Of a stretch of DNA of 64,000 nt, positions 1 to 12,603 are shown piece by piece. Made by a program: the position numbers and the translations under genes. The notes under the pieces are model-generated. The model had not been told where the DNA came from, did not search any database, and saw only the letters and a program-made list of their open reading frames with translations. Position 1 is the first letter of the stretch; every line of letters starts with the position of its first letter. This stretch comes from a virus. The stretch is taken from positions 32,001 through 96,000 of IMG/VR virus record IMGVR_UViG_3300021142_000012; one strand, 5' to 3'.

Positions 1-2
1 CC

Positions 3-536
3 AAACAAGATATGGCAGCTACTTTAAAAATTTCAGTTAGCGAATTAAAATTAAGAGAATACAAATTCAAACCTTATTATACTACTAGACTAGTTAATAA
101 TAATATTATGAAGAATGGTAATCAAGCATTGTTCTTTGAACCGATTAGTGCTACTTCGATTAATCAGTATGTTAGTACCTGTCATATTTTGTTTGATTAT
201 ATTATGGAAAATATATCTGAAGAACAGGCTAATGCACAATTTATTCACGAATCGAATGTAACTGAGGATATCATAAATTATTATTATCACGGTGGTACTA
301 ATTTTGACAGCACATTTTGGCAAGCAGCCAAAAAAAATGCCATCAATAATCTTAAAGATAACCAACGTTTTAAAACAATCTTAGACCAAAATCAAATGGC
401 AAATGACATCGGACTTCCATATAATGGCCCCGCCCATTTGTTCACTGCTTATAGTCTACAGATTATTGATGAAGGATTTGGCTATAATTACTTCAAAGGT
501 TCTCCAAGACCGTTTGACAATGTAGACAAATCATAG
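3..536 (+). CDS. C-terminal part of a divergent tryptophan-halogenase-like flavoprotein (probably 5'-truncated by the window edge)
   Basis: Frame is open to the window start. GNQALFFEPISATS resembles the halogenase GFIEPLESTG motif, followed by a YYHGGTNFDSTFW segment like the halogenase C-terminal HY...FW region. Confidence 0.55.
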   Translation, partial: KQDMAATLKISVSELKLREYKFKPYYTTRLVNNNIMKNGNQALFFEPISATSINQYVSTCHILFDYIMENISEEQANAQFIHESNVTEDIINYYYHGGTNFDSTFWQAAKKNAINNLKDNQRFKTILDQNQMANDIGLPYNGPAHLFTAYSLQIIDEGFGYNYFKGSPRPFDNVDKS

Positions 537-542
537 TATAAT
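514..542 (+). promoter_or_regulatory. Consensus sigma70-type promoter
   Basis: TTGACA (514-519), 17-bp spacer, TATAAT (537-542), upstream of the ORF at 571. Confidence 0.85.
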
Positions 543-570
543 CATATATAACCAAACATTAAGGTAAAGC

Positions 571-1098
571 ATGAAACGTAATTATAAAACAGGAGTATCA
601 GAACAAGTTACTTTGTTTACAGGTATAGAAATTGAACGTACCCCTGCATATGGTATGAAAACATTATTTGTAGTAGGAGTACAGGATGGCGATGTATTAG
701 GGCATATAGCTAAAATACAAAATTGTACTCACGTATATTTCGGTGCTAATCAGAGTTTTCCAAAGCTAAAAACTAATGATGCAGCCGGTTGGAAACCTTG
801 GGAAGATATGATTCAAAGCTGTTTGGATGCAGGATTATGGTGCACCTTAGATTTTGATGTTGCCCAAGCTGAAGGATTGCTTGAAAGTGGTTTAACCGAA
901 TGTCGTAGATTTATTCCACAAGTTAGTGTAAAATTACCTTATCTAGCACAGTTAGGTTATAATGCTACAATTAAAATCGACGATAAAGATTTTGAAGCAA
1001 GTAATCCAGGTGTATGGTGTGTACCGATTGGTGCCATTACACAACGCAAGTACTTTACCAATTGGGATGAATATGGCAAGGATGAAATCATAGCATGA
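571..1098 (+). CDS. Hypothetical phage protein heading the deazaguanine-related operon
   Basis: 175-aa ORF with an AAGG RBS, directly after the promoter. Contains HVYFGANQSF; no recognisable family. Confidence 0.7.
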   Translation: MKRNYKTGVSEQVTLFTGIEIERTPAYGMKTLFVVGVQDGDVLGHIAKIQNCTHVYFGANQSFPKLKTNDAAGWKPWEDMIQSCLDAGLWCTLDFDVAQAEGLLESGLTECRRFIPQVSVKLPYLAQLGYNATIKIDDKDFEASNPGVWCVPIGAITQRKYFTNWDEYGKDEIIA

Positions 1099-1688
1099 AC
1101 AACCAAATTAAACAACAAATAGAAAATCTAATATGCAAGCCCTTAATAGGCATGCCAGTTCCTACTAATCAAGGCGGTCACGCCGGAAGAGAAGTTGAAA
1201 CGATTCTAGAAAATATGGGTGTTCCGATTAAAAAAGGATCAGGTGCAGATATTACAATACAGGTAACGTTGCTCGGTATAAAATATTTTATCGAAGTAAA
1301 GACACGAGATAAAGACGCAACAAGCCCACATACAGTCGGAACTATACATACAGATAATTTGTCAGTATGCTATGAAGATTCAAATATATGGGAAAAATTG
1401 CAATATCAAATTAGAATTACTACAGAAAATGGTATAATAATTAAATCTGAATTATATGATTTTACTAGAAAACATATACAAGATAAATTTAAAGAAGCAT
1501 ATGATTATGGTATAAAGTATATTATTGCTAACGAATTTTGTTCATCTACACCAATAGATGGGCATTGGGCATATTTTGAAAGAAAGGCTGCCGAATCAAA
1601 TAGTTTTCAATACCGGTTAAGCAAAAATGATATGCCTGCAATAGAAAGAATGGCCAAGACAGTTGACAATTTATTTGAAGAACTTTAA
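1095..1688 (+). CDS. PD-(D/E)XK-family endonuclease-like protein
   Basis: GREVE...GADI...IEVKTR matches the E...(P)D...ExK catalytic pattern of restriction-endonuclease-fold nucleases. Confidence 0.6.
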   Translation: MNNQIKQQIENLICKPLIGMPVPTNQGGHAGREVETILENMGVPIKKGSGADITIQVTLLGIKYFIEVKTRDKDATSPHTVGTIHTDNLSVCYEDSNIWEKLQYQIRITTENGIIIKSELYDFTRKHIQDKFKEAYDYGIKYIIANEFCSSTPIDGHWAYFERKAAESNSFQYRLSKNDMPAIERMAKTVDNLFEEL

Positions 1689-1689
1689 C

Positions 1690-2079
1690 ATGATAATTCG
1701 ACAAGATATTAGACCAAACAAAATGATCTGGGTTACCTTTCGTAAAGAAGGTATTCATCGTTATCCGGCTGCCGCTACAGATCCTAACTTGTGTACCGCA
1801 GGAGAATATGATGTTAGTTTCCTAGCTAATGCACATAGACATATATTCCATTTTAAAGTTTGGATTGGTGTAGAACATAACGATCGCGATATTGAATTTA
1901 TTCAATTTAAACGCTGGTGTGAAAGTTTGTACAATCAAGATATTTTACAGCTTGATTTTCAAAGTTGCGAAATGATGAGTGATGCATTGTATGCTCAGAT
2001 TGAAGCAAGGTACCCGGGCCGTGAGGTTTGGATTGAGGTCTCCGAAGATGGAGAAAATGGTAGTTTCATCAAATATTAA
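1690..2079 (+). CDS. QueD/PTPS-like T-fold protein with LxxxHRHxF motif (DpdL-like, putative CDG decarboxylase)
   Basis: LANAHRHIF replaces the QueD CxxxHGH motif. SCEM and VSEDGEN are T-fold signatures. Lies in a folE/queE neighbourhood. Confidence 0.7.
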   Translation: MIIRQDIRPNKMIWVTFRKEGIHRYPAAATDPNLCTAGEYDVSFLANAHRHIFHFKVWIGVEHNDRDIEFIQFKRWCESLYNQDILQLDFQSCEMMSDALYAQIEARYPGREVWIEVSEDGENGSFIKY

Positions 2080-2089
2080 AGGTAAGACA

Positions 2090-2356
2090 ATGGCTCTGAA
2101 AAATTATAAAGAGTATAAGTATTTTGAAAATCGTCCTGATGTAGTAAAGATTTTTGAAGATCTTGAAAAGTTCCAAGATTTTTGTCGGTTGGAAATGGCT
2201 CCATTCGATGAAAGTCACTTGTACAACAGAGAAAGCTGGGCATGGAGAAACTATGAAAAGAGTCTTCGTCCTAAAAAGCCTTGGGATGGTCAAAAGAAGC
2301 AATGGACAGGTGAACGTAAACCTTACCAAGGAAAGAACTCAAGATATCAACAATGA
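2090..2356 (+). CDS. Hypothetical protein
   Basis: ATG after AAGG RBS (MALKNYKEY...); its stop overlaps the next start. Confidence 0.65.
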   Translation: MALKNYKEYKYFENRPDVVKIFEDLEKFQDFCRLEMAPFDESHLYNRESWAWRNYEKSLRPKKPWDGQKKQWTGERKPYQGKNSRYQQ

Positions 2357-3447
2357 CAGTCTATATAGTTGATCTAGAAGCAGTAGAAACGAGGTACACG
2401 GGTCAGTGGAAGACTCATGTGCCTCACCTCTTACGAAAGGCAGGACACGATGTTCAAATTATCTCTGGGCCTGAGGATATTCCTAAAGCCACTACTCCTG
2501 GTGCTTTTCTTAATTTTGGTGGCACCAATATATACAAGGCTAGTCAAGTTGAAAAGATTAGTCGCTTATTTTGCGCCGGATCAATTAATCCTGGTGATCA
2601 CTTCTTGTTTACTGATGCTTGGCATCCTGGTATCATAAATTTAAAGTATATGAGTGAACTGTTACAGATTCCTGTAACAACACATGGCTTGTGGCATGCT
2701 GGATCATATGATCCTCAAGATTTCTTAGGAAGATTAATTGGCAATGCTAAATGGGTGCGACGAGCAGAACAAAGTTTTTATCACGCTTATGATCATAACT
2801 ATTTTGCTACAGAATTCCATGTGAAATTATTCTTTGACGAATTATTACACAATGGGTTGGCTAGTGAAAATCCGTGGTACGAAGAAGATTGGGCAGAACG
2901 CTATAAAGGTGGAAAGATTGTGCGCACTGGTTGGCCAATGGAATATATGGAAGATGCCTTGCTAATGTATAAAGGTATGGAAAAGCGTGATCTTATTCTT
3001 TTTCCACACAGAATCGCTCCAGAAAAGCAAGTTGAAATTTTTAGAGACTTAGCAGAACATTTACCACAATATGAATTTGTAGTGTGCCAAGATAAGCAAT
3101 TAAGTAAAAACGAATATCATAATTTGTTAGGTGAAGCGAAAATGGTATTCAGTGCCAACTTACAAGAAACGCTAGGTATTAGTTGGTATGAAGGATGCAT
3201 TGTGGGTGCTATTCCCATGGTTCCTGATAGATTGAGCTATAGTGAAATGGCATTAGATGATTTCAAATATCCTAGCGAATGGACTGAAAACTATGCAAGC
3301 TATGAAAGACACCGTGAAGAAATTATCGCTAAGATTAAAAGTCAGATGGATTCGTATCAGAGATTGGTACCGACAATTTACAAACAAACCGAAATCCTAC
3401 GCGACAATTTCTTTTCCGCAGACGTGTTACTCGACCATATCAAGTAA
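2353..3447 (+). CDS. GT-B fold glycosyltransferase (GT4-like)
   Basis: 364 aa. C-terminal FPHRIAPEKQ and SANLQETLGISWYEG...PMVPDRLSYSE match the GT-B ExFG-x-x-x-x-E donor-binding region. Confidence 0.8.
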   Translation: MTVYIVDLEAVETRYTGQWKTHVPHLLRKAGHDVQIISGPEDIPKATTPGAFLNFGGTNIYKASQVEKISRLFCAGSINPGDHFLFTDAWHPGIINLKYMSELLQIPVTTHGLWHAGSYDPQDFLGRLIGNAKWVRRAEQSFYHAYDHNYFATEFHVKLFFDELLHNGLASENPWYEEDWAERYKGGKIVRTGWPMEYMEDALLMYKGMEKRDLILFPHRIAPEKQVEIFRDLAEHLPQYEFVVCQDKQLSKNEYHNLLGEAKMVFSANLQETLGISWYEGCIVGAIPMVPDRLSYSEMALDDFKYPSEWTENYASYERHREEIIAKIKSQMDSYQRLVPTIYKQTEILRDNFFSADVLLDHIK

Positions 3448-3829
3448 CGATACTATTACATTGACATCAACATCTACACAAGGACTTACAATAGGCGGTG
3501 GGTATACATCATATACTATCGGTAGTGGCATTGCAAGTCTTTCTGCTAGTAGTCCTAGTACTATTACTGTGACTGGTTTTGGTGGTGCAGGTACTACTAA
3601 TCCCTGCGTTGTCAATATCGGTGCTGGTTACAATCCGTGCTGGAATACTTCTACAGGATTTGGTGGTACAACAATATGGGGCGAAGATTTTATAGATCGT
3701 GTACCCGATATTAACCGAATCAACGACATGTGCAAGCAATATCCAGCATTAGATATTGCTTGGACCAAATTTAAAACAACTTATAGACTTGTAAAAGACG
3801 ATTATGATGCTTCAAAAACTTCTAACTAA
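3293..3829 (+). CDS. Hypothetical protein with a Ser/Thr/Gly-rich N-terminal part; start uncertain
   Basis: Fills the gap between the GT and the cupin. C-terminus is globular-looking (MCKQYPALDIAWTKFKTTYRLV). The available ATGs lie inside the GT gene. Confidence 0.55.
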   Translation: MQAMKDTVKKLSLRLKVRWIRIRDWYRQFTNKPKSYATISFPQTCYSTISSNDTITLTSTSTQGLTIGGGYTSYTIGSGIASLSASSPSTITVTGFGGAGTTNPCVVNIGAGYNPCWNTSTGFGGTTIWGEDFIDRVPDINRINDMCKQYPALDIAWTKFKTTYRLVKDDYDASKTSN

Positions 3830-4283
3830 ATTTTTAAATTTCCTTGATCAACACGGCCGTAAACGAATAATTATGGATCGTATTGATAATGAGCCATATC
3901 TTGAAAGATATTATGTATTGTTTAATACTAGACAACACAAAGGTTTTAACGTATACCTGCATAAATTCCTTAAAGGTGATCCAGATGATGTTCATGATCA
4001 TCCATGGCCATATGCTACCTTTATTTTGAGCGGTGGATACTATGAGTGGATTCCGCAATTTAATTCAGATGGCACAAAGAGCTGTGAGATTCGAAAGTGG
4101 CGTGGGCCCGGGCATTTCCGTATTTGTCGCCCAGATAGTTATCACAGAGTAGAACTGAAGCCGGGTGTAACTGCATGGACATTGTTTATGCCGGGGCCGC
4201 ATCGTAGACAATGGGGATTTCTTGTCAACAATAAATGGATACACAATGACGACTATCTTACAAGCCGTAAACAAAATGGCTAG
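3804..4283 (+). CDS. Cupin-fold metal-binding protein
   Basis: HDHPW...ILSGGYYE...HRVEL is the two-motif cupin His/His/Glu/His pattern. Confidence 0.75.
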   Translation: MMLQKLLTKFLNFLDQHGRKRIIMDRIDNEPYLERYYVLFNTRQHKGFNVYLHKFLKGDPDDVHDHPWPYATFILSGGYYEWIPQFNSDGTKSCEIRKWRGPGHFRICRPDSYHRVELKPGVTAWTLFMPGPHRRQWGFLVNNKWIHNDDYLTSRKQNG

Positions 4284-4620
4284 CAGTATAACGGTTCCAA
4301 ATGGCGGAACTACCAGCCAAATATTATATTCTACAGGTACATCAACAAATTGGTCACCTGCTCAAAATTACGAGCAAGTAATGACTGTTAATGCCGGCGA
4401 AAGCAATCCTACATTAACTGTTAAAGGTAATATGGTCATTAACGGTATTGATTTAGAAGAACGGCTAAAAACAATTGAAAAACTCTTGGCAATTCCAGAA
4501 AGAGATGCTAAAATAGAAGCTAAACATCCAAGACTTAAGAAATTATATGATGAATATATTTCAGCACTAGAGCAATATAGGACTTGGGACAAACTAAAAG
4601 GTGATGAAGATGTTACATGA
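4276..4620 (+). CDS. Hypothetical protein
   Basis: ORF overlapping both neighbours, with a helical C-terminus. Confidence 0.65.
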   Translation: MASSITVPNGGTTSQILYSTGTSTNWSPAQNYEQVMTVNAGESNPTLTVKGNMVINGIDLEERLKTIEKLLAIPERDAKIEAKHPRLKKLYDEYISALEQYRTWDKLKGDEDVT

Positions 4621-4834
4621 ATCAGTTAAACAAAAAGAATTTGTAGTTAAAGAACGTGAAGATTATAGACTACGTGTTACACGGCACGAAGTTCTTGCAC
4701 CAAAAGGTTTGCACAGTATTGATTTTATTCAAGAAAGTTTAAAAGACGGCAAAGTTATAGCATCACAAACTTATAACTTTTTCATGACTAAGGAAGATAT
4801 TAAAATACTATGCGAAGGACTATTAAATGACTGA
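4610..4834 (+). CDS. Hypothetical protein
   Basis: Short ORF packed into the operon. Confidence 0.6.
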   Translation: MLHESVKQKEFVVKEREDYRLRVTRHEVLAPKGLHSIDFIQESLKDGKVIASQTYNFFMTKEDIKILCEGLLND

Positions 4835-5045
4835 TCGATTAGAAGAATTATATCAAGAGATGTTAAATGTAACATCGCATATGGTTGAAGAATATGGTGG
4901 TATGGAAGTTGCTGCTATTATGATGGCGCAGGCCCTTAGCATTTATAAAACTGGTTTAGATGAAATCGACTATAACAAAATGGTCGATAGTATTTCTGCT
5001 AGTCGTTCTAAGGTTCAAAAATTTACTCCAACTTTTTTACAATGA
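4827..5045 (+). CDS. Hypothetical protein
   Basis: 72-aa ORF with an AGGA RBS, overlapping its neighbours. Confidence 0.6.
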   Translation: MTDRLEELYQEMLNVTSHMVEEYGGMEVAAIMMAQALSIYKTGLDEIDYNKMVDSISASRSKVQKFTPTFLQ

Positions 5046-5590
5046 AAAAACGTACTATTAGTAATGACGAATATAGAGGACTAGTTCAAAATATTTGTCG
5101 AGAAATCGAATTAAGCAAGTGGCGTCCAGATTATATTGTGGGTATTACTCGAGGTGGACTGGTTCCTGCTGTTATGATTAGTCAATATTTTGATATACCC
5201 ATGTGGACCTTACGAGTTAATCTGCGTGATCATGCAGAAACAGAATCAAACTCTTGGATGGCTGAAGATGCTTTCGGCTATATACCAGAGGACTGGCGTG
5301 AAGGTATTGATAAACGTGACGATCCTACATTTAGCAAAAAAATACTTGTAGTTGATGATATCAATGATACAGGTGCTACTATTAATTGGATTACAGAAGA
5401 TTGGCAATCCAACTGCTTGCCTAAGGAAGAACGTTGGAATCATGTATGGAATCAGAATGTTCGATTTGCAGTAGTCATCGATAATGTAGCTAGCAAGTGT
5501 AATGTTAAGATGGATTTTTGTGGCGAAGAAATTAACAAAGAAGAAGATCCAGTATGGATTGACTTCCCGTATGAAGGATGGTGGAAATGA
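5042..5590 (+). CDS. Type I purine phosphoribosyltransferase (Gpt/Hpt-like)
   Basis: IVGITRGGLVPA, the PRPP-binding loop ILVVDDINDTGAT, and C-terminal WIDFPYE. Confidence 0.85.
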   Translation: MKKRTISNDEYRGLVQNICREIELSKWRPDYIVGITRGGLVPAVMISQYFDIPMWTLRVNLRDHAETESNSWMAEDAFGYIPEDWREGIDKRDDPTFSKKILVVDDINDTGATINWITEDWQSNCLPKEERWNHVWNQNVRFAVVIDNVASKCNVKMDFCGEEINKEEDPVWIDFPYEGWWK

Positions 5591-5799
5591 CCTCAGCATT
5601 ATTAAAACTTATTTTAGGCGTTACATTAATTGTAATCGCTATAACACTAGGACCGCTAGCAGGTATTTGGAGTCTAAATACACTGTTTCCAATATTGGAT
5701 ATACCATATACTTTAGAAACATGGTGTGCGTACTTCTTGTTATTCGGTAGTATTACAGGACTTCGATTTGGATTGAATAGGAAAAAGAGCAATGACTGA
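5587..5799 (+). CDS. Small membrane protein
   Basis: Two hydrophobic segments followed by a basic tail. Confidence 0.6.
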   Translation: MTSALLKLILGVTLIVIAITLGPLAGIWSLNTLFPILDIPYTLETWCAYFLLFGSITGLRFGLNRKKSND

Positions 5800-5962
5800 A
5801 CTAACTCCTCAAGCTCTTGAAGAAAAGATTAAAAAAGTCGAAGACGATTTAAAGCTATTACGTACTACAGGTGATGCTAGTCGTAAAACTGAAGTTCTTA
5901 ACGAATATATTGAATATCTTAAAGACGAGTTAAGAGACCTACAGAGTGCTCGCCGCCCATAA
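5792..5962 (+). CDS. Small coiled-coil hypothetical protein (56 aa; not in the ORF track)
   Basis: Manual translation MTELTPQALEEKIKKVEDDL...ELRDLQSARRP*; fills the gap. Confidence 0.6.
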   Translation: MTELTPQALEEKIKKVEDDLKLLRTTGDASRKTEVLNEYIEYLKDELRDLQSARRP

Positions 5963-6515
5963 TTTAAACTCTCTTAGTCCGTTTATTCGCGGATATTACA
6001 TAGATCCGGAGATATGCGATCGCATTGTAGCTGAATCCAATCTGCGTAAGAAAGATTTTATGCAGGGTCAACTAATCAATAATGCTGTAGAATTTACAGG
6101 TGGACGATTAGACGATTATACCCCTGCTGTCCGAGATCCATATGTCGAAGCACTGTTTGAGGTAATCGAAGAGTACAAGAAAGAGTTTAAATTTTCTTAT
6201 GAAATTATAGATATGTGGGGCTTACCTCCCGGAATGAAAGTACAATACTATACTCCAGGGCAAGCATTTAGAATATGGCATTGCGAAAGTAGTGGGGATC
6301 CTGTTTCCACATCAAGACATTTAGTCTATATGACATATCTAAATACGATTGAAGACGAAGGTGGTACTGAATTTTATCATCAACAGATAAAGGTTAAACC
6401 AGAAAAAGGATTGACCCTAATTTGGCCTGTTGATTGGACTCATACACACCGAGGAGTTCCTTCGGCTACAGAAGAAAAATATATTATTACAGGATGGTGG
6501 ACGTTTCAACGATGA
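5946..6515 (+). CDS. 2OG-Fe(II) oxygenase (prolyl-hydroxylase-like), copy 1
   Basis: WHCE...YMTYLN...GGTEF...LIWP...HTHRG...KYIITGW. Confidence 0.85.
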   Translation: MLAAHNLNSLSPFIRGYYIDPEICDRIVAESNLRKKDFMQGQLINNAVEFTGGRLDDYTPAVRDPYVEALFEVIEEYKKEFKFSYEIIDMWGLPPGMKVQYYTPGQAFRIWHCESSGDPVSTSRHLVYMTYLNTIEDEGGTEFYHQQIKVKPEKGLTLIWPVDWTHTHRGVPSATEEKYIITGWWTFQR

Positions 6516-7075
6516 AAGAACATGTTATAAACAAAACTAACGATTTTATTCGTGGATATTACATAGATCCAGAGATATGCGATCGTATAGTATCTGAATC
6601 TAAAATACACAACTTTAGAAGTGGTGTAATGCAGTATACTGATATTAATCTAGAAGAGTTTAGTAAGGAAACTTGTGATTCATATACAAACGCCCTGTTT
6701 GAAGTTATTGAAGAATATAAAAAAGAGTTCCGGTGGAGTTATGAAAAGGTAGTCATGTGGGGATTGCCTCAAGGTATCAAAGTACAACACTATGCTCCAG
6801 GCAAATGGTACGATCAATGGCATTGCGAACGTGCAGGTGATGTACCATCACTATTTCGTCATCTAGTATACATGACATACTTAAACGATGTCGAAGATGG
6901 CGGTGGTACTGAATTCTATCATCAAAAGATTATAACTAAGGCAGAAAAAGGATTGACCCTAATTTGGCCGGTTGACTGGACTCATATGCACAGAGGCGTA
7001 GTTGCACCAACTGAAGAAAAAATGATTATTACCGGATGGTGGATGTTTAAAGGACCAGAAGATGAGATTAAGTAA
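6512..7075 (+). CDS. 2OG-Fe(II) oxygenase (prolyl-hydroxylase-like), copy 2
   Basis: Same motifs as copy 1. ATGA overlap at 6512-6515. Confidence 0.85.
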   Translation: MKEHVINKTNDFIRGYYIDPEICDRIVSESKIHNFRSGVMQYTDINLEEFSKETCDSYTNALFEVIEEYKKEFRWSYEKVVMWGLPQGIKVQHYAPGKWYDQWHCERAGDVPSLFRHLVYMTYLNDVEDGGGTEFYHQKIITKAEKGLTLIWPVDWTHMHRGVVAPTEEKMIITGWWMFKGPEDEIK

Positions 7076-7319
7076 AAAACATCAAAATTGGGATAGTCGC
7101 ATACCTGCTCGAGATGAGGGATATGTTCATGTAGTTAGATTACCCTGGACTGGTCAATCTAGCTATTGGTGGAATGAAGCATGTGCCGATATTATGGAAG
7201 TATTTGGATTGCCCGGTGACCGATTTACCAGCCATCCTACAGCAGATTACATGGATTTTTATTTTAAATCAGAAAAGGACGCAACATTATGCAAAATACT
7301 AGTATCAGAGAAAAATTAG
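7062..7319 (+). CDS. Hypothetical protein
   Basis: 85-aa ORF with an AGGA RBS. Confidence 0.6.
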   Translation: MRLSKKHQNWDSRIPARDEGYVHVVRLPWTGQSSYWWNEACADIMEVFGLPGDRFTSHPTADYMDFYFKSEKDATLCKILVSEKN

Positions 7320-7489
7320 AAACCTTTGTTGTTGCTATCATAGGCATCATTGGATTCGGTTTTGCCCTTTATTGGAATTATACCCATCCTCATGTTACTG
7401 TTAAGTATGATTGCTCAATAGCTGAAATTAGCCCAGACTATCCTGTACAAGTTAAAGAAGGTTGTCGTAAGCTAAATGCCAGAAAATGA
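7289..7489 (+). CDS. Small membrane-anchored protein with a Cys pair
   Basis: One transmembrane helix, then YDCSIAEISPDYP...CRK. Confidence 0.6.
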   Translation: MQNTSIREKLETFVVAIIGIIGFGFALYWNYTHPHVTVKYDCSIAEISPDYPVQVKEGCRKLNARK

Positions 7490-7599
7490 AAAGCGATACC
7501 AGAGTACTTGTAATCATGTGGATTAGTTTGGCTATACTAGGCGGTGCATTGGGCTTAATAATCTACGGAATACAATCATTATTGTTGACAGCGACCTAA
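7486..7599 (+). CDS. Very small membrane protein (37 aa; not in the ORF track)
   Basis: Manual translation MKSDTRVLVIMWISLAILGGALGLIIYGIQSLLLTAT*; ATGA overlap with the previous gene. Confidence 0.5.
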   Translation: MKSDTRVLVIMWISLAILGGALGLIIYGIQSLLLTAT

Positions 7600-7614
7600 A
7601 TAAACCTATATAAT
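7585..7614 (+). promoter_or_regulatory. Sigma70-type promoter for the folE-queE transcript
   Basis: TTGACA (7585-7590), 18-bp spacer, TATAAT (7609-7614). Confidence 0.7.
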
Positions 7615-7653
7615 AACATATAGACATCCACGTCTATAACTCGGAGAACAGAT

Positions 7654-8466
7654 TTGACAACATTTACAACAGAAGACTTAAAAGCAGTATTAGAAAATAA
7701 TCCTGATCTAGTTAAAGAAGCACCATATCATCCAGGATACGAGGATGCTGCCATGAACATGGGCGATAAAGGATATGAAGAAGCAAATCTTGCTGATGCT
7801 ATCCGTTTCAATATGAAGCGTGATAAGAAACGCTTTTGGGCCGGAGACAATATTAGTGAATATGTAGTTGGGCATAGAGATGAACTAATTGCTAATGCAA
7901 CTAAAGCCTTTGAAGGAGTGTTAGACGCACTCTTGATTGATAGAGAAACAGATCCAAACTCACAAGGCACAGCACGACGCTTGGCCAAGATGTATTTTAA
8001 CGAAATTATGGGAGGTCGATATGATCCAGCACCAGATTGCACAGCTTTTCCAAATGATAGCCAAGATAGATATGAAGGTATGCTTGTTGTTCGTAGCGAG
8101 TTGCGTTCTATGTGTAGCCATCACCATCAACCTGTTAGTGGTGTTGCATACATCGGAATTATTGCAGCCAATAAACTTATTGGCTTGTCTAAATATACTA
8201 GGATTGCTCAGTGGTGTGCTCGTCGTGGCACTCTTCAAGAAGAACTCTGTAACGACATCGCCCGAGAAATAATGCGGGCAACTGATTCAGAGCATGTGGG
8301 CGTGTATATTCAGGCCACGCATGGTTGCTGTGAAAATCGTGGCATCATGGCGCATTCGAGTCTGACACAGACCACTGTGCTCAAAGGTGCATTCAACACA
8401 GACCCAGGAACCAAGAAAGAGTTCATGGACAATATCAAACTTCAACAGGACTTTGCCCCAAGATGA
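7654..8466 (+). CDS. folE: GTP cyclohydrolase I
   Basis: SMCSHHHQP, GLSKYTRI, LQEEL and HGCCENRG motifs. TTG start with a GGAG RBS. Confidence 0.95.
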   Translation: MTTFTTEDLKAVLENNPDLVKEAPYHPGYEDAAMNMGDKGYEEANLADAIRFNMKRDKKRFWAGDNISEYVVGHRDELIANATKAFEGVLDALLIDRETDPNSQGTARRLAKMYFNEIMGGRYDPAPDCTAFPNDSQDRYEGMLVVRSELRSMCSHHHQPVSGVAYIGIIAANKLIGLSKYTRIAQWCARRGTLQEELCNDIAREIMRATDSEHVGVYIQATHGCCENRGIMAHSSLTQTTVLKGAFNTDPGTKKEFMDNIKLQQDFAPR

Positions 8467-8693
8467 TGAACGCAAAAGAACTAGCAGATCAACTAATTAA
8501 TCGAGCTAAAAATATGCAAGAATTTATAGTATTTCGTGATATGGAAAATATTGTCTTTGATGGCCGTCCATTTCCATATACTATCAATCACTCAATGGGA
8601 ATGCCCGCAGAAATACTTGTACCGGCATTGACTCAAGAAGAAGCAGAACAACAGGTCAACAATTGGTTAGACGGACAGAGAGACTCGGCATGA
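8463..8693 (+). CDS. Hypothetical protein
   Basis: ORF coupled to folE by overlap. Confidence 0.6.
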   Translation: MMNAKELADQLINRAKNMQEFIVFRDMENIVFDGRPFPYTINHSMGMPAEILVPALTQEEAEQQVNNWLDGQRDSA

Positions 8694-8881
8694 TTATTTC
8701 TATTTTATGCTTCTTCCTAGGAATGTTAGCAGGCTACAATCTTAGTCAAACACCAAAAGATGTTGTATTGGACGATAAACTTAGAGCAAATTTAGCTGTG
8801 GCTGAAAACCTAAATACTAGTCTTAAAAAAGATTTAGAAGAAGCCAAAGAAACAATTTGGAAATTAAAACACTCTAAATGA
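8690..8881 (+). CDS. Small protein with an N-terminal hydrophobic segment and a coiled coil
   Basis: MIISILCFFLGMLAGY followed by a helical segment. Confidence 0.55.
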   Translation: MIISILCFFLGMLAGYNLSQTPKDVVLDDKLRANLAVAENLNTSLKKDLEEAKETIWKLKHSK

Positions 8882-9057
8882 AAAAAATACTTGCTAGAAT
8901 AGCCAGCGAGATGTTATACTACTTAGGGCATTGGATTAGTTTTCCAATGCAGTTGTTTGATTGGGCATGGTTGTATCCAACATATAACAAACTAATGTCG
9001 TGGAGTAGTAACATACAAGACTGGGCAGGCAATGATAAACCGTGGATTAAGATATGA
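8878..9057 (+). CDS. Small Trp-rich hypothetical protein (59 aa; not in the ORF track)
   Basis: Manual translation MKKILARIASEMLYYLGHW...DKPWIKI*; ATGA overlaps on both sides. Confidence 0.55.
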   Translation: MKKILARIASEMLYYLGHWISFPMQLFDWAWLYPTYNKLMSWSSNIQDWAGNDKPWIKI

Positions 9058-9899
9058 GTAAACTTAAAGTAGCAGAATTGTTTTATAGTATACAAGGTGA
9101 AGGACGCTTTATGGGTGTACCCAGCGTGTTCCTTAGAACTTTTGGCTGCAATTTTTCTTGTAGGGGATTTGGTATGCCCAAAGGCGAATTAAGTGAGGAA
9201 TACTTAAAAGTAGACCCAATAAATTTTAAAACGTACAATGAACTTCCACTAGTGAGTACAGGGTGTGATAGTTATGCATCATGGGATCCTAGATTTAAAG
9301 ATCTTAGCCCGATGATAGAAAGCGATGGAATTGTTGATCGCATTATGGAGATACTTCCATATAAAGGTTGGGTAGATGAACACTTGGTTATCACAGGCGG
9401 TGAACCTCTGCTAGGTTGGCAACGTGCTTATCCTGATTTGTTAGATCATACTTATATGAAACCATTGCGTGATATTACATTTGAAACAAATGGTACTCAA
9501 AAATTAACTGATGATTTTAAAGAATATTTGTTGGATTGGACTTTACGCGATCATAACTTTAAACAAATTACATTTAGCGTCAGTGCTAAATTAAGTTCAA
9601 GCGGTGAGCTTGCTAGCGATGCTATTAAACCCGAAGTCGTTAATGAGTATCAGGAAGTAGGATTTACATATCTCAAATTTGTAGTTGCTACAGAAGATGA
9701 TGCTGAAGAAGCATTAGAAACAGCAGACATTTATAGAGAAAATGGATTCACTGGGCCTGTATACTTAATGCCAGTCGGTGGCGTTGAAAGTGTGTATAGT
9801 CTCAATAATCGTCGTGTTGCAGAATTGGCTATGAAGATGGGCTTGCGTTACAGTGATCGTTTACAAGTCCCATTATTTAAAAATGAGTGGGGAACCTAA
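9054..9899 (+). CDS. queE: 7-carboxy-7-deazaguanine synthase (radical SAM)
   Basis: ELFYSIQGEG, VFLRTFGCNFSC...GCDS, VITGGEP, ETNGT, and a C-terminal RLQ motif. Confidence 0.9.
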   Translation: MSKLKVAELFYSIQGEGRFMGVPSVFLRTFGCNFSCRGFGMPKGELSEEYLKVDPINFKTYNELPLVSTGCDSYASWDPRFKDLSPMIESDGIVDRIMEILPYKGWVDEHLVITGGEPLLGWQRAYPDLLDHTYMKPLRDITFETNGTQKLTDDFKEYLLDWTLRDHNFKQITFSVSAKLSSSGELASDAIKPEVVNEYQEVGFTYLKFVVATEDDAEEALETADIYRENGFTGPVYLMPVGGVESVYSLNNRRVAELAMKMGLRYSDRLQVPLFKNEWGT

Positions 9900-10330
9900 T
9901 GAAAAAATTATTAAGAAGATGGCTAGGTATTAGTGCGTTAGAAGCTGAAAAAGAATTATTACAACAGGCTAGAGACAAAGCAGTCGCTGAAACAGTGATA
10001 GCTCAAACCAAAGAAGAACAAGCCAAAATGGATCCAAAGGATCGTGCTACTGCTCGAGGAGAGCCGTGGGTATCTGTGTTAGACACACATATTAACAAAG
10101 ATAATATTCGTAATGGATTTTTTGAGTTAGATTGGAATGATATCTTTGTTCAAGAATTGATTGCTTCCGGATATGGCTATGAAGCAGATCCGCCAGAGCA
10201 AATTGTAGATCGTTGGTTTAGAGATCTAGCAAGAAATATGTTAGCAGAAGAAGGAATGGATCCTAATAGATCTACTTCTGGATATATTAATGTATCTAAG
10301 ATCAGTAATACCAAATCGGAAATATCATGA
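9899..10330 (+). CDS. Hypothetical phage protein
   Basis: TAATG overlap with queE; contains GFFELDWN...IVDRWF. Confidence 0.7.
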   Translation: MKKLLRRWLGISALEAEKELLQQARDKAVAETVIAQTKEEQAKMDPKDRATARGEPWVSVLDTHINKDNIRNGFFELDWNDIFVQELIASGYGYEADPPEQIVDRWFRDLARNMLAEEGMDPNRSTSGYINVSKISNTKSEIS

Positions 10331-10917
10331 CCTATAAAGTTATAGATTCGAATGAGTATATCGATACATATAATTTTAGTTCATTAATTACCAAAGCTGA
10401 TACTCAAGAAATAATGCAGATTTCTAAAAGCATTATTGACAGCGGTCTTTATTTTGAAAATAGCCCAAAATATCAAACTAAAGAAAATTTGTTTGGGCGA
10501 GATGAAAAAGTATTCTTAAAAATGCGCCAAAGTTTTATCTATAGTTGCTTTATGTATTTGGGTAAGGAAGTAAAGATTAAAGGCATCAATAGTTGGGTGT
10601 TTATGACTAAGAAAAGCGATGAACCTGATCGTGACAATCTTTGGCACAAGCATCATTACGATGAACCCTGGGGTAAATTGAGCGGCATTTTCTATTTACA
10701 TATACCAGATGATATTGTTGATAGAGAACTATGCGGTACTGAATTTAGTGAAACTAGTGAAAATGTAAGAGCCCAATTACCAACTAAAACCTTCTTTGTA
10801 AGGCCAAAAGACTTGACTTGGCACATATATCCTAGTAAAATGTGGCATAGGTCCGGAATTACCAATTCCGATGAATATCGTTTTGTTTATGCCGCAGATA
10901 TGGATTATTACGAATGA
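10327..10917 (+). CDS. Putative 2OG-Fe(II) oxygenase (DSBH fold)
   Basis: WHKH...LSGIFYLHIP...GTEF...IYPSKMWHR...RFVYAAD. Confidence 0.65.
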   Translation: MTYKVIDSNEYIDTYNFSSLITKADTQEIMQISKSIIDSGLYFENSPKYQTKENLFGRDEKVFLKMRQSFIYSCFMYLGKEVKIKGINSWVFMTKKSDEPDRDNLWHKHHYDEPWGKLSGIFYLHIPDDIVDRELCGTEFSETSENVRAQLPTKTFFVRPKDLTWHIYPSKMWHRSGITNSDEYRFVYAADMDYYE

Positions 10918-11603
10918 TAAATCGTATTAGGAGTTTGTATCCTACAACAGAGTTTACTCCCAGTTGGAATTTTCCCATCTATACTAGTCAATGGGCTGAT
11001 ATTGAAAAAATAGACAAGATTAGAAATTGGCTACTTGAAAAAGAACAAGATTTTATTACTGCATATCCATATCATCACGATGGCGGAGCAGCCTTAGGAA
11101 AAGATAGTGTTACTAGTAGACATGGATTATATAGTCTATTTTGGTTTGAAAAAGAAATTCCAGAAATTATAGATCTATTAGAGTTTATTAGAAAATCTTA
11201 CATTGATTTTATTACAGAAGAAAATGCTAGTCCAAGAGAATCATATATTGTTTCTTGGTTTAATGTCGCTAGAAAGGGTCAAGATATTAAACAACATGCT
11301 CACGGCGCTGATCATGAATCGTATCTAAGTGGCAATATGCATCTAGATACCTATGACACATATAATGCATTTATATCACCTTATGATGATAGATCTTCTT
11401 TTATCAGAGATAATATCAAAGGCGGTATTTCTATGTTTCCAAGTTGCTTACCTCATTACAGTAGTGTGTACCAAGGCGATGAACCTCGCGTAAGTATAGC
11501 GTTTGATTTAAGAATTAAGCCAACAAAACAACATGGTTTCGGAGTTGAATCAATTCCGTTCATGAATACTAGCATTTATAATCAACTCACCGCAGAAAGT
11601 TAA
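10914..11603 (+). CDS. Putative 2OG-Fe(II) oxygenase (DSBH fold)
   Basis: SWFNV...HAH...LSGNMHL...MFPSCLPH...RVSIAFD. Confidence 0.7.
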   Translation: MINRIRSLYPTTEFTPSWNFPIYTSQWADIEKIDKIRNWLLEKEQDFITAYPYHHDGGAALGKDSVTSRHGLYSLFWFEKEIPEIIDLLEFIRKSYIDFITEENASPRESYIVSWFNVARKGQDIKQHAHGADHESYLSGNMHLDTYDTYNAFISPYDDRSSFIRDNIKGGISMFPSCLPHYSSVYQGDEPRVSIAFDLRIKPTKQHGFGVESIPFMNTSIYNQLTAES

Positions 11604-11604
11604 T

Positions 11605-12603
11605 ATGACATACATTTTAGTTGATACAGCTAATACATTTTTCCGTGCTAGACACGTAGTACAAGGCGATGCCGATATTAAGTTAGGTATGGCATTCCAC
11701 ATTACATTTAACAGTATTAAGAAAGCATGGCAGGACTTTGGCGGTACTCATGTGGTGTTTTGCTTAGAAGGTCGTAGTTGGCGTAAGGACTATTACAAAC
11801 CTTACAAGGCAAATCGTCAAGAAACTCGCGATGCTATGACAGTTAAACAGCAAGAAGAAGATAAATTGTTTTGGGAAGCATTTGATCAATTTAAAGACTT
11901 TATTAGTGAAAAAACTAATTGTACAGTACTACAACATAAACAACTAGAAGCAGATGATTTAATTGCAGGTTGGGTACAGGCACATCCAGATGCAAAGCAT
12001 GTTATCATTTCAACAGATGGTGACTTCGCACAACTAATCAGCCCTAATGTGAGCCAATATAACGGTGTGGGTGATTTACATATTACACACGAAGGTATCT
12101 TTGATGCTAAAGGTAAACCTGTTAAAGATAAAAAAACAGGCGAGCCCAAGCCAGCACAAGATCCAGAATGGATGCTATTCGAAAAATGCATGCGTGGTGA
12201 TACCAGTGATAATGTCTTCTCGGCGTATCCAGGTGTGCGTACTAAAGGTTCTAAAAACAAAGTTGGGTTGATGGAGGCGTTTGCTGATCGTAAGACTAAA
12301 GGATATAATTGGAATAATCTAATGCTTCAGCGTTGGGTAGATCACAATGGTGTAGAACATCGTGTCTTAGAAGATTATCAACGTAATGTACAGTTATGTG
12401 ATCTAACAGCACAACCTGATGATATTAAAGTTTTAATTAAAGAGACGATTGAAGCAGGTGCAAAACCTAAAGATATAACACAAGTAGGTATTCGTATGCT
12501 AAAGTTTTGTAATGCATGGGACATGAAAAAGATTGCAGACAATGTCCAACAATATGCAGAACCGTTACAGGCCAAATACAACAGAGAGGTAGTAATTGAT
12601 TAA
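11605..12603 (+). CDS. rnh: T4 RNase H-like 5'-3' exonuclease (FEN/PIN fold)
   Basis: ILVDTAN, SWRKDYYKPYKANR, EADDLI, STDGDFAQL and GDTSDNV motifs. Confidence 0.88.
   Translation: MTYILVDTANTFFRARHVVQGDADIKLGMAFHITFNSIKKAWQDFGGTHVVFCLEGRSWRKDYYKPYKANRQETRDAMTVKQQEEDKLFWEAFDQFKDFISEKTNCTVLQHKQLEADDLIAGWVQAHPDAKHVIISTDGDFAQLISPNVSQYNGVGDLHITHEGIFDAKGKPVKDKKTGEPKPAQDPEWMLFEKCMRGDTSDNVFSAYPGVRTKGSKNKVGLMEAFADRKTKGYNWNNLMLQRWVDHNGVEHRVLEDYQRNVQLCDLTAQPDDIKVLIKETIEAGAKPKDITQVGIRMLKFCNAWDMKKIADNVQQYAEPLQAKYNREVVID

Follow-up and report, generated by a model that had tools for sequence, protein, structure and literature searches.

A candidate DpdL-type 7-deazaguanine DNA-modification cluster with an accompanying glycosyltransferase in an uncultured jumbo phage

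Which modified base, if any, would be made by a phage gene cluster in which FolE, QueE and a DpdL-type protein stand beside a glycosyltransferase (GT), a cupin, a PRTase and two 2OG oxygenases, and which of these neighbors belong to the pathway? The window, i.e., the stretch of 64,000 nucleotides analyzed here, comes from a 108-kb IMG/VR fragment (29% complete) of an uncultured jumbo phage of about 350 kb. Gene identities and catalytic motifs were established directly, as was co-occurrence across lineages, gene linkage being tallied in 80 relatives of the phage and then in other DpdL phages. The reading that we favor, at a probability of roughly 0.55, is that the locus encodes the central part of a 7-deazaguanine DNA-modification system of the DpdL type, extended by a previously undescribed GT module. 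The features are shown in Table 1.

Table 1. Features of the locus, in positions of the window
Feature	Positions	Strand	Remarks
Promoter P1	514-542	+	exact TTGACA-17 nt-TATAAT, read directly; heads the 175-aa gene through ~7489
175-aa acidic alpha/beta protein (571 ORF)	571-1098	+	travels with DpdL and GT
PD-(D/E)XK-like accessory nuclease	1095-1688	+	NOV_C match, E 0.005, below cut-off; D...EVK motif by eye
DpdL (QueD-paralogous T-fold)	1690-2079	+	LANAHRHIF (= LxxxHRHxF); PHROG 17812, 1e-32
88-aa basic-tailed ORF	2090-2356	+	between dpdL and GT gene
GT4-like GT-B glycosyltransferase	2353-3447	+	AF2 pLDDT 92.3; catalytically intact
Cupin-like protein	3804-4283	+	PHROG 4786 'cysteine dioxygenase', 3e-39
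Purine-type PRTase	5042-5590	+	Pfam Pribosyltran 1.3e-12; closest to xanthine/guanine PRTase
Tandem 2OG-Fe(II) oxygenase paralogs	5946-7075 (5946-6515, 6434-7075)	+	Pfam 2OG-FeII_Oxy_3
Promoter P2	7585-7614	+	exact TTGACA-18 nt-TATAAT, 12/12; heads folE through queE and beyond
FolE, GTP cyclohydrolase I	7654-8466	+	Pfam GTP_cyclohydroI 1.4e-38; 58% identity to Phosso FolE
QueE, radical-SAM 7-carboxy-7-deazaguanine synthase	9054-9899	+	PHROG 2076 QueE-like, 9e-51

An earlier, sequence-only reading of the locus had named these genes and described a tightly packed run behind one promoter. The genes lie where it placed them, and the plus-strand run after P1 is as compact as described (4-nt overlaps at 1095/1098 and 2353/2356). 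The single promoter has to be corrected, as P2 is a separate perfect promoter for folE-queE; the two are the only perfect 12/12 matches in 12.7 kb.

The same reading had recognized FolE, QueE and a DpdL-type protein in the window, and matches to Pfam and PHROG, the motif and homology bear out all three identities. The start of the T-fold gene is the ATG at 1690; a start at 1663 was dropped. Its product shows identities of 53% to the DpdL of ACP17, 35% to that of phiST and 67% to a Phosso protein, and the residues H23, H49, H51, E69, S92-C93-E94, E119 and D120 are invariant among 32 sequences. Membership in DpdL follows from the motif, for which the earlier reading agrees with the literature, together with the 35-53% identity to the two DpdL proteins named there (PMC10516641). 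Decarboxylation of 7-carboxy-7-deazaguanine (CDG) to 7-deazaguanine has been proposed for DpdL (PMC10516641), and the protein encoded here is thus a proposed CDG decarboxylase. QueE is 51% identical to the QueE of BUCT-ZZ01; five NCBIfam QueE models match it, each below cut-off. With the DpdL motif, FolE and QueE, we class the locus as a DpdL-type 7-deazaguanine cluster, as had been suggested.

DpdA is missing from the window, as had been stated, and a gene for a 560-aa TGT-like protein ends 679 nt before the window start (29.6-31.3 kb of the source fragment). The protein, a homolog of PA5oct gp168, yielded neither a direct Pfam TGT match nor a PDB sequence match. It carries the motifs DSGGFQ, LQGE (QG), HFLGTS (LG) and SFDC (FDC), and a profile-profile comparison links its family to the ACP17/X1 DpdA family (95% probability, E 2.4e-8); motifs and profiles together identify it as a putative DpdA. 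The search for dpdA, queD and queC in the rest of the genome, recommended earlier, was in part successful. Besides dpdA on the fragment, it yielded QueD in four of the five long relatives, among them the two with a completeness of 94% or more, encoded away from the cluster; QueD was not found on the 29%-complete contig itself. QueC-like PP-loop proteins occur elsewhere in complete relatives, so that a preQ0 branch is possible.

The GT-B enzyme was rightly named. The confident GT-B/GT4 model gave Foldseek matches to BshA, MshA, GlgM and glycogen synthase (E 3e-10 to 1e-9, probability 1.0), and the best viral structural match was a protein of ACP17 (TM 0.85-0.91). The Ex7E pair E272/E280 and the residues R220 and K225 are kept in 44 diverse homologs. 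The GT adjoins or lies near dpdL in eight divergent lineages (this phage, Phosso, ACP17, PA5oct, BUCT-ZZ01, X1, BCSR5 and one uncultured clade). In the other seven lineages the two genes are either neighbors or no more than a few kb apart, and the enzyme of the uncultured clade is only 29% identical to the GT of the window. Judged from these linkages, the GT is conserved together with DpdL and the long DpdA and would be part of the pathway.

The strongest competing explanation, to which we give a minor though real share of the probability, is a plain dDG system like that of Cellulophaga phage phiST, which comprises FolE, QueD, QueE, DpdL and DpdA3 (Cui, Hutinet et al. 2023; PMC10516641). The GT and the 175-aa protein would then have a different role, e.g., on a small molecule, on a glycan of the virion or the host, or on some other base, and their genes would neighbor dpdL only because both belong to the early replication module that large phages have. 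The two phages are alike in FolE, QueE, an LxxxHRHxF DpdL, a divergent TGT-like inserting enzyme, the lack of QueC in the cluster and a PRTase in the genome. They differ in that phiST lacks both the GT and the 175-aa protein, that its DpdA3 has 259 aa (neither long-DpdA profile matched the phiST genome), and that a MazG/dUTPase-like gene adjoins dpdL. Since phiST fully replaces dG by dDG without a GT, the GT is dispensable for DpdL function. The plain system is further favored by distances in other phages: Phosso DpdA lies 170 kb from the GT gene, the PA5oct homolog of the 175-aa protein lies 27 kb from dpdL, and a distant GT homolog in PhiXhv-15, a phage not among the DpdL tblastn matches, sits in a sugar cluster, dpdL not being found in the 12.7-kb region of that phage that was covered. 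Moreover, 7-deazaguanine has no obvious acceptor group for O-glycosylation, which counts against a sugar, the sole candidate hydroxylases (2OG) not being conserved. The structural neighbors of the GT are small-molecule GT4 enzymes and not known DNA glucosyltransferases, which likewise speaks against glycosylation of DNA.

Three observations argue against a plain dDG system. In five lineages with GT identities of only 22-48% and otherwise differing gene orders, the GT gene directly adjoins or overlaps dpdL; the GT lies inside the FolE...QueE block in ACP17, X1, BCSR5 and BUCT-ZZ01; and the GT and the long A3/A4-type DpdA match perfectly, this DpdA being present in 8/8 lineages with the GT vs 0/6 DpdL lineages without it.

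Regarding the extended system that we prefer, the closest parallels are found in two phages. Acidovorax phage ACP17 (156-kb genome, T4-like) has the order QueD-FolE-h132-DpdA-GT-DpdL-QueE, with the 175-aa family, a GT of 35% identity and DpdL in one block with FolE and QueE; its DpdA is a 424-aa A3 form, whereas the phage of the window has a 560-aa A4 form, and it lacks the PRTase. In Pseudomonas jumbo phage PA5oct, gp168-gp162 encode a DpdA-like protein, GT, DpdL, x, an SDR-like protein, PRTase and QueE. Shared with the window phage are the A4 DpdA, the GT (42% identity), DpdL (51%), the PRTase, QueE and a downstream 5'-3' exonuclease (50%); PA5oct differs in its short epimerase/dehydratase-like gp164, not seen in the window phage, and in the lack of the cupin and 2OG genes. 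The DNA of PA5oct is resistant to G-containing restriction enzymes, and a modified G of unidentified nature was reported (PMC12191111). In E. coli, dpdL plus dpdA of ACP17 and of phiST did not suffice for dDG; a possible need for further enzymes was put forward by the authors (PMC10516641). A full-text search requiring 'glycosyltransferase' did not return that paper, which is therefore presumably silent on the GT.

The 175-aa protein had no match in Pfam, PHROG, NCBIfam or PDB sequences, and its AF2 model (pLDDT 82.5) no fold match above background (best Z 7.0). It is kept in 70/80 relatives, with homologs in PA5oct (45% identity) and, within the deazaguanine cluster, in ACP17 (hhalign probability 98.9%, E 2e-17). 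The 88-aa ORF, present in 73/80 relatives, gave no match in a family search; its conservation is confined to the lineage.

Co-occurrence with dpdL, folE and queE across unrelated phages, put forward earlier as a test, was found for the GT, the 571 ORF and the PRTase, and not for the cupin. The PRTase, confirmed as such by Pfam, has XPRT (xanthine PRTase) as its best NCBIfam match (2e-8, below cut-off). As many as 17 of its 19 phage-database matches fall in DpdL phages, and it lies within the deazaguanine cluster in PA5oct and BUCT-ZZ01. PRTases of deazapurine antibiotic pathways (TubE, ToyH) use CDG or preQ0, and complete base replacement is typical of nucleotide-pool routes. A pre-replicative route of the tubercidin/toyocamycin kind can thus be envisaged, in which the PRTase would join CDG or 7-deazaguanine to PRPP, the nucleotide would be converted to a deoxynucleoside triphosphate and incorporated by the phage polymerase, and the TGT-like protein would be secondary; phiST, which carries the PRTase, does replace all its G. 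This route is nevertheless improbable: the PRTase occurs in just four of 13 DpdL lineages (PA5oct, BUCT-ZZ01, phiST and this one), whereas a DpdA-like gene is present in all GT lineages, the closest named family fits simple salvage of guanine from base exchange, and a dGTP-clearing enzyme was not identified in the cluster.

Pterin glycosides, too, are made with FolE, a T-fold enzyme of the PTPS kind and a glycosyltransferase. The product of the locus might accordingly be a soluble metabolite, a glycosylated pterin or deazapurine comparable to cyanobacterial biopterin glucoside, and no DNA base. This reading is very improbable, even though the top structural neighbors of the GT are all small-molecule enzymes and a tetrahydrobiopterin glucosyltransferase (9v0l) occurs among the Foldseek matches at rank 50. 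That match does not stand out from dozens of other GT4 enzymes, QueE commits the route to a deazapurine, the catalytic Cys of PTPS/QueD is missing from DpdL, and a TGT-like base-exchange enzyme occurs together with the GT in 8/8 lineages.

Four kinds of gene are passengers, specific to the lineage or to the genome: those for the cupin, the nuclease and the 2OG oxygenases, and flanking halogenase-like genes. Both oxygenases are indeed present, as had been noted; they are 60% identical to one another, occur in 0/80 close relatives and were not found when the clusters of other DpdL phages were inspected. Part of a 2OG oxygenase gene in cyanophage S-RSM4 shares 85% identity with a 68-nt stretch (5889-5956) that overlaps the start of the first gene. 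As the oxygenases are not conserved, the earlier idea of a base that is hydroxylated and then glycosylated is left without support. For the cupin, the PHROG match agrees with the name given, whereas Pfam is silent and the pathway link across lineages is missing: it occurs in 69/80 relatives and in 0/12 other DpdL phages searched (i.e., in this lineage only), and its phage homologs are mostly from mycobacteriophages and others, none being among the DpdL matches. The nuclease is consistent with its sub-threshold match and motif, but it is sporadic (6/80 relatives) and is probably a mobile insertion outside the pathway.

In the pathway that we infer, for each chemical step as for the modification of DNA at all, FolE would convert GTP to dihydroneopterin triphosphate, QueD (encoded elsewhere in complete relatives) would form CPH4 and QueE would form CDG, the carboxyl group of which DpdL would remove or rework. 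The 560-aa DpdA would then exchange guanine in phage DNA for the deazaguanine base, and the PRTase, most simply, would return the excised guanine to GMP, feeding FolE. The GT4-like enzyme would transfer a sugar from an NDP-sugar to a presumed acceptor, the deazapurine prior to its insertion or else the base already in the DNA, and the 175-aa protein may assist this step.

The logic of a GT-B enzyme decorating an already non-canonical DNA base is known from glucosyl-hmC of T4 and from base J (glucosyl-hmU), which differ in being pyrimidines with a hydroxymethyl acceptor; a conserved hydroxylase was not found in the system of the window. The T4 glucosyltransferases belong to other GT families. 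In animal tRNA, mannosyl- and galactosyl-queuosine are made by QTMAN/GTDC1 and QTGAL (PMC11755703); here, too, a sugar is added to a 7-deazaguanine nucleoside already inserted into nucleic acid by TGT, though the nucleic acid is RNA and the sugar sits on a cyclopentenediol side chain that the pathway of the window cannot make. The GT accompanies deazaguanine genes in eight phage groups that are distant from one another; a sugar may therefore be attached to the modified base, and a glycosylated deazaguanine in the DNA of these phages is possible.

The locus is, as judged from its sequence, a real DpdL-type deazaguanine system. DpdL was defined as the paralog of QueD that has LxxxHRHxF where QueD has CxxxHGH, and it was proposed as the 7-carboxy-7-deazaguanine (CDG) decarboxylase yielding the 7-deazaguanine deoxynucleoside (dDG) of phage phiST (PMC10516641). 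The motif and the decarboxylation link had both been given in the sequence-only reading and both agree with that paper, the window protein reading LANAHRHIF at about 1822-1848. Over more than 90% of its length (tblastn) this protein showed an identity of 53% (E 1e-32) to the DpdL of ACP17 and of 35% (E 1e-10) to that of phiST (CGPG_00067), these phages being the bearers of the DpdL proteins named in the literature (PMC10516641). In an alignment of 32 sequences L45, H49, H51 and F53 are invariant, as are the His triad, two Glu residues and an SCE motif, and R50 is nearly so. Regarding the genomic company of DpdL, FolE and QueE are encoded in the window, and a search beyond it located both a DpdA-like gene, which ends 679 nt upstream, and a canonical QueD (PTPS, about 172 aa), which is encoded elsewhere in four of the five long relatives. 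The parallel search for queC succeeded only in part: none was found on the 108-kb contig, while partial QueC-like PP-loop proteins are encoded far from the cluster in both complete relatives, given which a preQ0 branch is possible. An Rfam search of window positions 1-12700 yielded no preQ1 or other riboswitch match at E <= 1.

Features of the cluster and its flanks (window positions unless stated), with the number of relatives containing a homolog among the best 80 of at least 598 glycosyltransferase-bearing contigs; because many of the relatives' loci are incomplete, the counts are lower bounds
Feature	Position	Strand	Basis	Relatives (of 80)
DpdA-like protein, 560 aa	29.6-31.3 kb of the contig (G000)		clear match to PA5oct gp168	
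Tryptophan-halogenase-like	G000:C1:31319-32536 (3' end = window 12-536)		Pfam Trp_halogenase 2e-37	0
Promoter P1	514-542	+	perfect match; TTGACA 514-519, 17-nt spacer, TATAAT 537-542	
175-aa protein	571-1098	+		70
Nuclease-like	1095-1688	+	sub-threshold PD-(D/E)XK-like match only	6
DpdL	1690-2079	+	LxxxHRHxF signature	75
Glycosyltransferase	2353-3447	+	GT-B fold (model)	80
Cupin-like, 'cysteine dioxygenase'	3804-4283	+	PHROG only	69
PRTase	5042-5590	+	Pfam 1.3e-12; nearest named family xanthine PRTase, below cut-off	45
Tandem 2OG oxygenase paralogs	5946-6515 and 6434-7075	+	Pfam 2OG-FeII_Oxy_3; 60% identical to each other	0
Promoter P2	7585-7614	+	perfect sigma-70 match, TTGACA-18-TATAAT; 40 nt upstream of folE start	
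FolE	7654-8466	+	Pfam 1.4e-38; predicted start codon TTG	63
QueE	9054-9899	+	PHROG 9e-51; five NCBIfam QueE models, below cut-off; 51% identity to BUCT-ZZ01 QueE	56
Second 2OG-Fe(II) oxygenase pair	10327-11603		Pfam 2OG-FeII_Oxy_5	8 and 1
Tryptophan-halogenase-like	12596-14086			0
88-aa ORF				73

The 560-aa DpdA-like protein, whose gene is separated from P1 by one of the halogenase-like genes, contains VLGDSGGFQ, LNVLQGE, WMHFLGTS and ISFDCASP, which we take to be the four hallmark TGT motifs (DSGGFQ Asp, QG, LG and FDC Asp); D101-S102-G103-G104, Q106, G246, H311, L313-G314, S342 and D344 are invariant across five homologs. A profile of the ACP17, X1, BUCT-ZZ01 and BCSR5 proteins, the X1 member of which is annotated as queuine tRNA-ribosyltransferase, touched PA5oct gp168 at the DSGG region, and gp168 then led to the 560-aa homolog; compared profile to profile, the two families matched with a probability of 95% (E 2.4e-8). 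Neither the DpdA protein of ACP17 nor the profile of its family had a match in genomes G001 or G002, and the 560-aa family profile gave only chance matches to PDB sequences. Pfam TGT had no match in the contig or the complete relatives, but since the X1 and ACP17 proteins annotated as DpdA likewise escape this model, its absence here means nothing.

The glycosyltransferase gene is linked to dpdL in eight divergent lineages, so the co-occurrence with deazaguanine genes expected from the sequence-only reading was indeed found. The enzymes of these phages are 22-48% identical and lie in differing gene orders, so that inherited synteny alone does not explain the association. Twelve DpdL phage lineages and relatives were searched genome-wide with profiles: the glycosyltransferase was present in eight lineages and not found in six (RHph_I1_18, phiST, Ahp1, D479, Bakedbeans and MA9V-3), and a long DpdA-like protein (416-560 aa; ACP17/X1 or PA5oct type) accompanied it in 8/8, the same profile search of whole genomes finding such a protein in 0/6 of the lineages without the glycosyltransferase. 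Among distant representatives of the enzyme, P0223, P0267 and P0257 gave no viral locus and only P0213 gave one.

Order of cluster genes in other phages (GT, glycosyltransferase)
Phage	Gene order
Sinorhizobium phage Phosso	DpdL-GT-x-FolE...QueE
Acidovorax phage ACP17	QueD-x-FolE-(175-aa homolog)-DpdA-GT-DpdL-QueE
PA5oct	gp168 (DpdA-like)-GT-DpdL-x-x-PRTase-QueE
Synechococcus phage BUCT-ZZ01	QueE-PRTase-x-QueD-FolE-x-DpdA-DpdL-GT
Xanthomonas phage X1	FolE-...-GT-TGT-DpdL-QueE
Burkholderia phage BCSR5	QueD-DpdL-...-GT-DpdA-x-QueE
Uncultured clade (GT only 29% identical to that of the window)	FolE...DpdL-GT...DpdA

Rhizobium phage RHph_I1_18 (locus L002, MN988519.1 40.7-42.0 kb), which is without the glycosyltransferase, has a macro-domain ('Appr-1-p processing') gene directly after dpdL, in the slot held by the glycosyltransferase gene in the lineages that bear it. 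PA5oct gp164 (locus L094, NC_071039.1 226406-226924; 172 aa), situated between DpdL and PRTase, has a Pfam Epimerase match (6e-7) that covers the N-terminal Rossmann portion of the NAD-dependent sugar epimerases/dehydratases, and it may be a sugar-nucleotide tailoring partner of the PA5oct glycosyltransferase.

An AlphaFold2 model of the glycosyltransferase based on 44 diverse homologs (pLDDT 92.3, pTM 0.89) has a predicted GT-B fold of two Rossmann-like domains, and its Foldseek matches were BshA, MshA, GlgM, PimA and glycogen synthase (E ~1e-10, probability 1.0). A C-terminal Ex7E motif together with basic residues binding the NDP-sugar phosphates is the mark of GT4-like retaining GT-B enzymes. 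Across the 44 homologs E280 of the motif E272-x7-E280 is invariant, and E272, R220 and K225 are at least 90% conserved; the enzyme therefore looks catalytically competent. No Pfam, PHROG or NCBIfam model matched it (Glycos_transf_1 models included), its sole profile match being PDB 8xsg, a 'putative glycosyltransferase' (E 8.5e-5), so that the modelled fold and the motif, and no sequence model, are the grounds for calling it GT4-like. Only at ranks 26-35 (E ~3e-6 to 6e-6), after generic GT4 enzymes, come the S-TIM5 'DNA alpha-GT' and the glycosyltransferases of SP-15, and no T4 DNA glycosyltransferase was among the top PDB structural matches; as modelled, the enzyme resembles known DNA glucosyltransferases no more closely than it does GT4 enzymes in general. 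A complex prediction with DpdL scored 0.00, which says nothing on binding either way.

Regarding the sugar donor, there is a hint by analogy. Xanthomonas phage PhiXhv-15 (locus L116, PV764602.1 104.8-108.9 kb) encodes a distant homolog (26% identity) between GlmS and a BshB-like deacetylase, an arrangement suggestive, for those 228-kb phages, of decoration with GlcNAc that is then deacetylated (GlcN), and UDP-GlcNAc is the donor used by BshA and MshA, the best structural neighbours of the glycosyltransferase. The annotation of the 12.7-kb region of PhiXhv-15 includes no dpdL, nor was this phage among the DpdL tblastn matches.

Two further cluster genes, both named in the proposed co-occurrence test, follow DpdL between phages. 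Regarding the PRTase, 17 of the 19 phage-database matches were in DpdL phages, with one copy each in the window lineage, PA5oct, BUCT-ZZ01 and phiST. The 175-aa protein was found again only in PA5oct and ACP17 among the DpdL phage genomes searched. It has invariant acidic residues (E20, E22, D94, D137, D138 and D171) and a confident model (pLDDT 82.5), for which Foldseek against the PDB gave no match at E <= 0.001; a wide VIA-align comparison gave Z 7.0 (RsbS) at best and 5.9 for QueE, all in the background range, the ESM Atlas yielded nothing useful, and hhalign revealed no homology of the family to the Phosso 'glycosylase', X1 h143 or BUCT h174. The ACP17 homolog (locus L003, KY979132.2 83050-83529) is annotated as 132 aa, but its open frame begins directly after folE and matches the family profile from position 1 across 170 aa; the annotated start is probably too late.

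The sequence-only reading had suggested, as one example, a deazaguanine hydroxylated by the tandem 2OG oxygenases and then glycosylated, a route that finds no backing in the 80 relatives, none of which has homologs of these oxygenases. It had also counted in the cupin and the nuclease. The cupin was found in none of the other DpdL phages searched, and its homologs in phages, mostly of mycobacteriophages and others, include none of the DpdL matches; the nuclease is rare among the relatives. The pathway model can do without the oxygenases, the cupin and the nuclease. Tailoring of the base by the flavin-dependent halogenase-like genes was rejected, as the 80 relatives have no homolog of either. 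These two genes, which flank the cluster and are distant paralogs (22% identity), look like genome-specific acquisitions. Against isolated phages the 9.5-kb region had a single megablast match: a stretch of 68 nt (5889-5956) shares 85% identity with part of a 2OG-Fe(II) oxygenase gene from the Synechococcus cyanophage S-RSM4, which hints at exchange of oxygenase genes with cyanophages. The second adjacent oxygenase pair lies between the queE unit and a 5'-3' exonuclease gene.

The window covers bases 32001-96000 of a linear IMG/VR virus contig of 108 kb (CheckV completeness 29%). Among the close relatives of this contig are one of 345 kb (94% complete) and another of 353 kb (98% complete), and the source is therefore a jumbo phage of about 350 kb. 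The lineage is very abundant, with at least 8000 close metagenomic glycosyltransferase homologs (the number scored, hence a lower bound) and relatives of the enzyme on at least 598 IMG/VR contigs, the best 80 of which are 73-79% identical. Genes are densely packed on the + strand from 571 to beyond 12600, several junctions having a 4-nt overlap. Promoter-like sites in general are not enriched (61 observed vs 50.7 expected), but P1 and P2 are the sole 12/12 matches in 12.7 kb and both lie inside the only sizeable gaps. P1 thus stands as proposed, whereas the single unit it was thought to head does not: with a second perfect promoter ahead of folE there are two early-type units.

In the pathway that we propose, FolE, QueD and QueE would make CDG, which DpdL would convert, probably to 7-deazaguanine; the long DpdA would exchange the deazaguanine base into DNA, and the GT4-like enzyme would add a sugar, its target being the base that has yet to be inserted or else the DNA that already contains it. 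The PRTase would most simply salvage the released guanine to GMP for FolE. That phages with DpdL, the GT4-like enzyme and a long (416-560 aa) DpdA, including the window lineage, PA5oct, ACP17, X1, BCSR5, Phosso and BUCT-ZZ01, put a sugar-bearing 7-deazaguanine derivative in their DNA is a tentative reading, to which we give little more than one chance in three. The acceptor would then come from DpdL and be accommodated by either the enlarged DpdA or the 175-aa protein. Chemistry is the weak point, in that an O-acceptor is not obvious in 7-deazaguanine and conservation is lacking for the only candidate hydroxylases of this locus. The glycosyltransferase, long DpdA and 175-aa extension are nonetheless a conserved variant of the DpdL system, of which no earlier description was found, and the joint presence of glycosyltransferase, DpdL and long DpdA in eight divergent lineages suggests an undescribed branch of the pathway.

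To our knowledge, eight 7-deazaguanine DNA bases are known, none with a sugar, and a sugar-bearing deazaguanine would, if true, be the first case of glycosylation of a purine-type base in DNA. The literature searched contained no published link between a glycosyltransferase and DpdL clusters and no glycosylated deazaguanine in DNA; the nearest precedent is the mannosyl- or galactosyl-queuosine of animal tRNA (PMC11755703). Cui et al. obtained no dDG from ACP17 or phiST dpdL plus dpdA in E. coli and suggested that other enzymes may be needed (PMC10516641). Their paper never mentions a phosphoribosyltransferase and appears to be silent on the glycosyltransferase, because it was not matched by a full-text search for 'glycosyltransferase'. 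The DNA of PA5oct withstands several G-containing restriction enzymes, and END nucleases that sense modified G target it; the base is not named in that work (PMC12191111). Cultured isolates, with their hosts on record, exist for five of the other lineages, which makes the question directly testable. If true, a sugar-bearing deazaguanine would be a new DNA base, could explain the lack of product from ACP17 dpdL plus dpdA in E. coli, and would account for the modified G of PA5oct that END nucleases sense.
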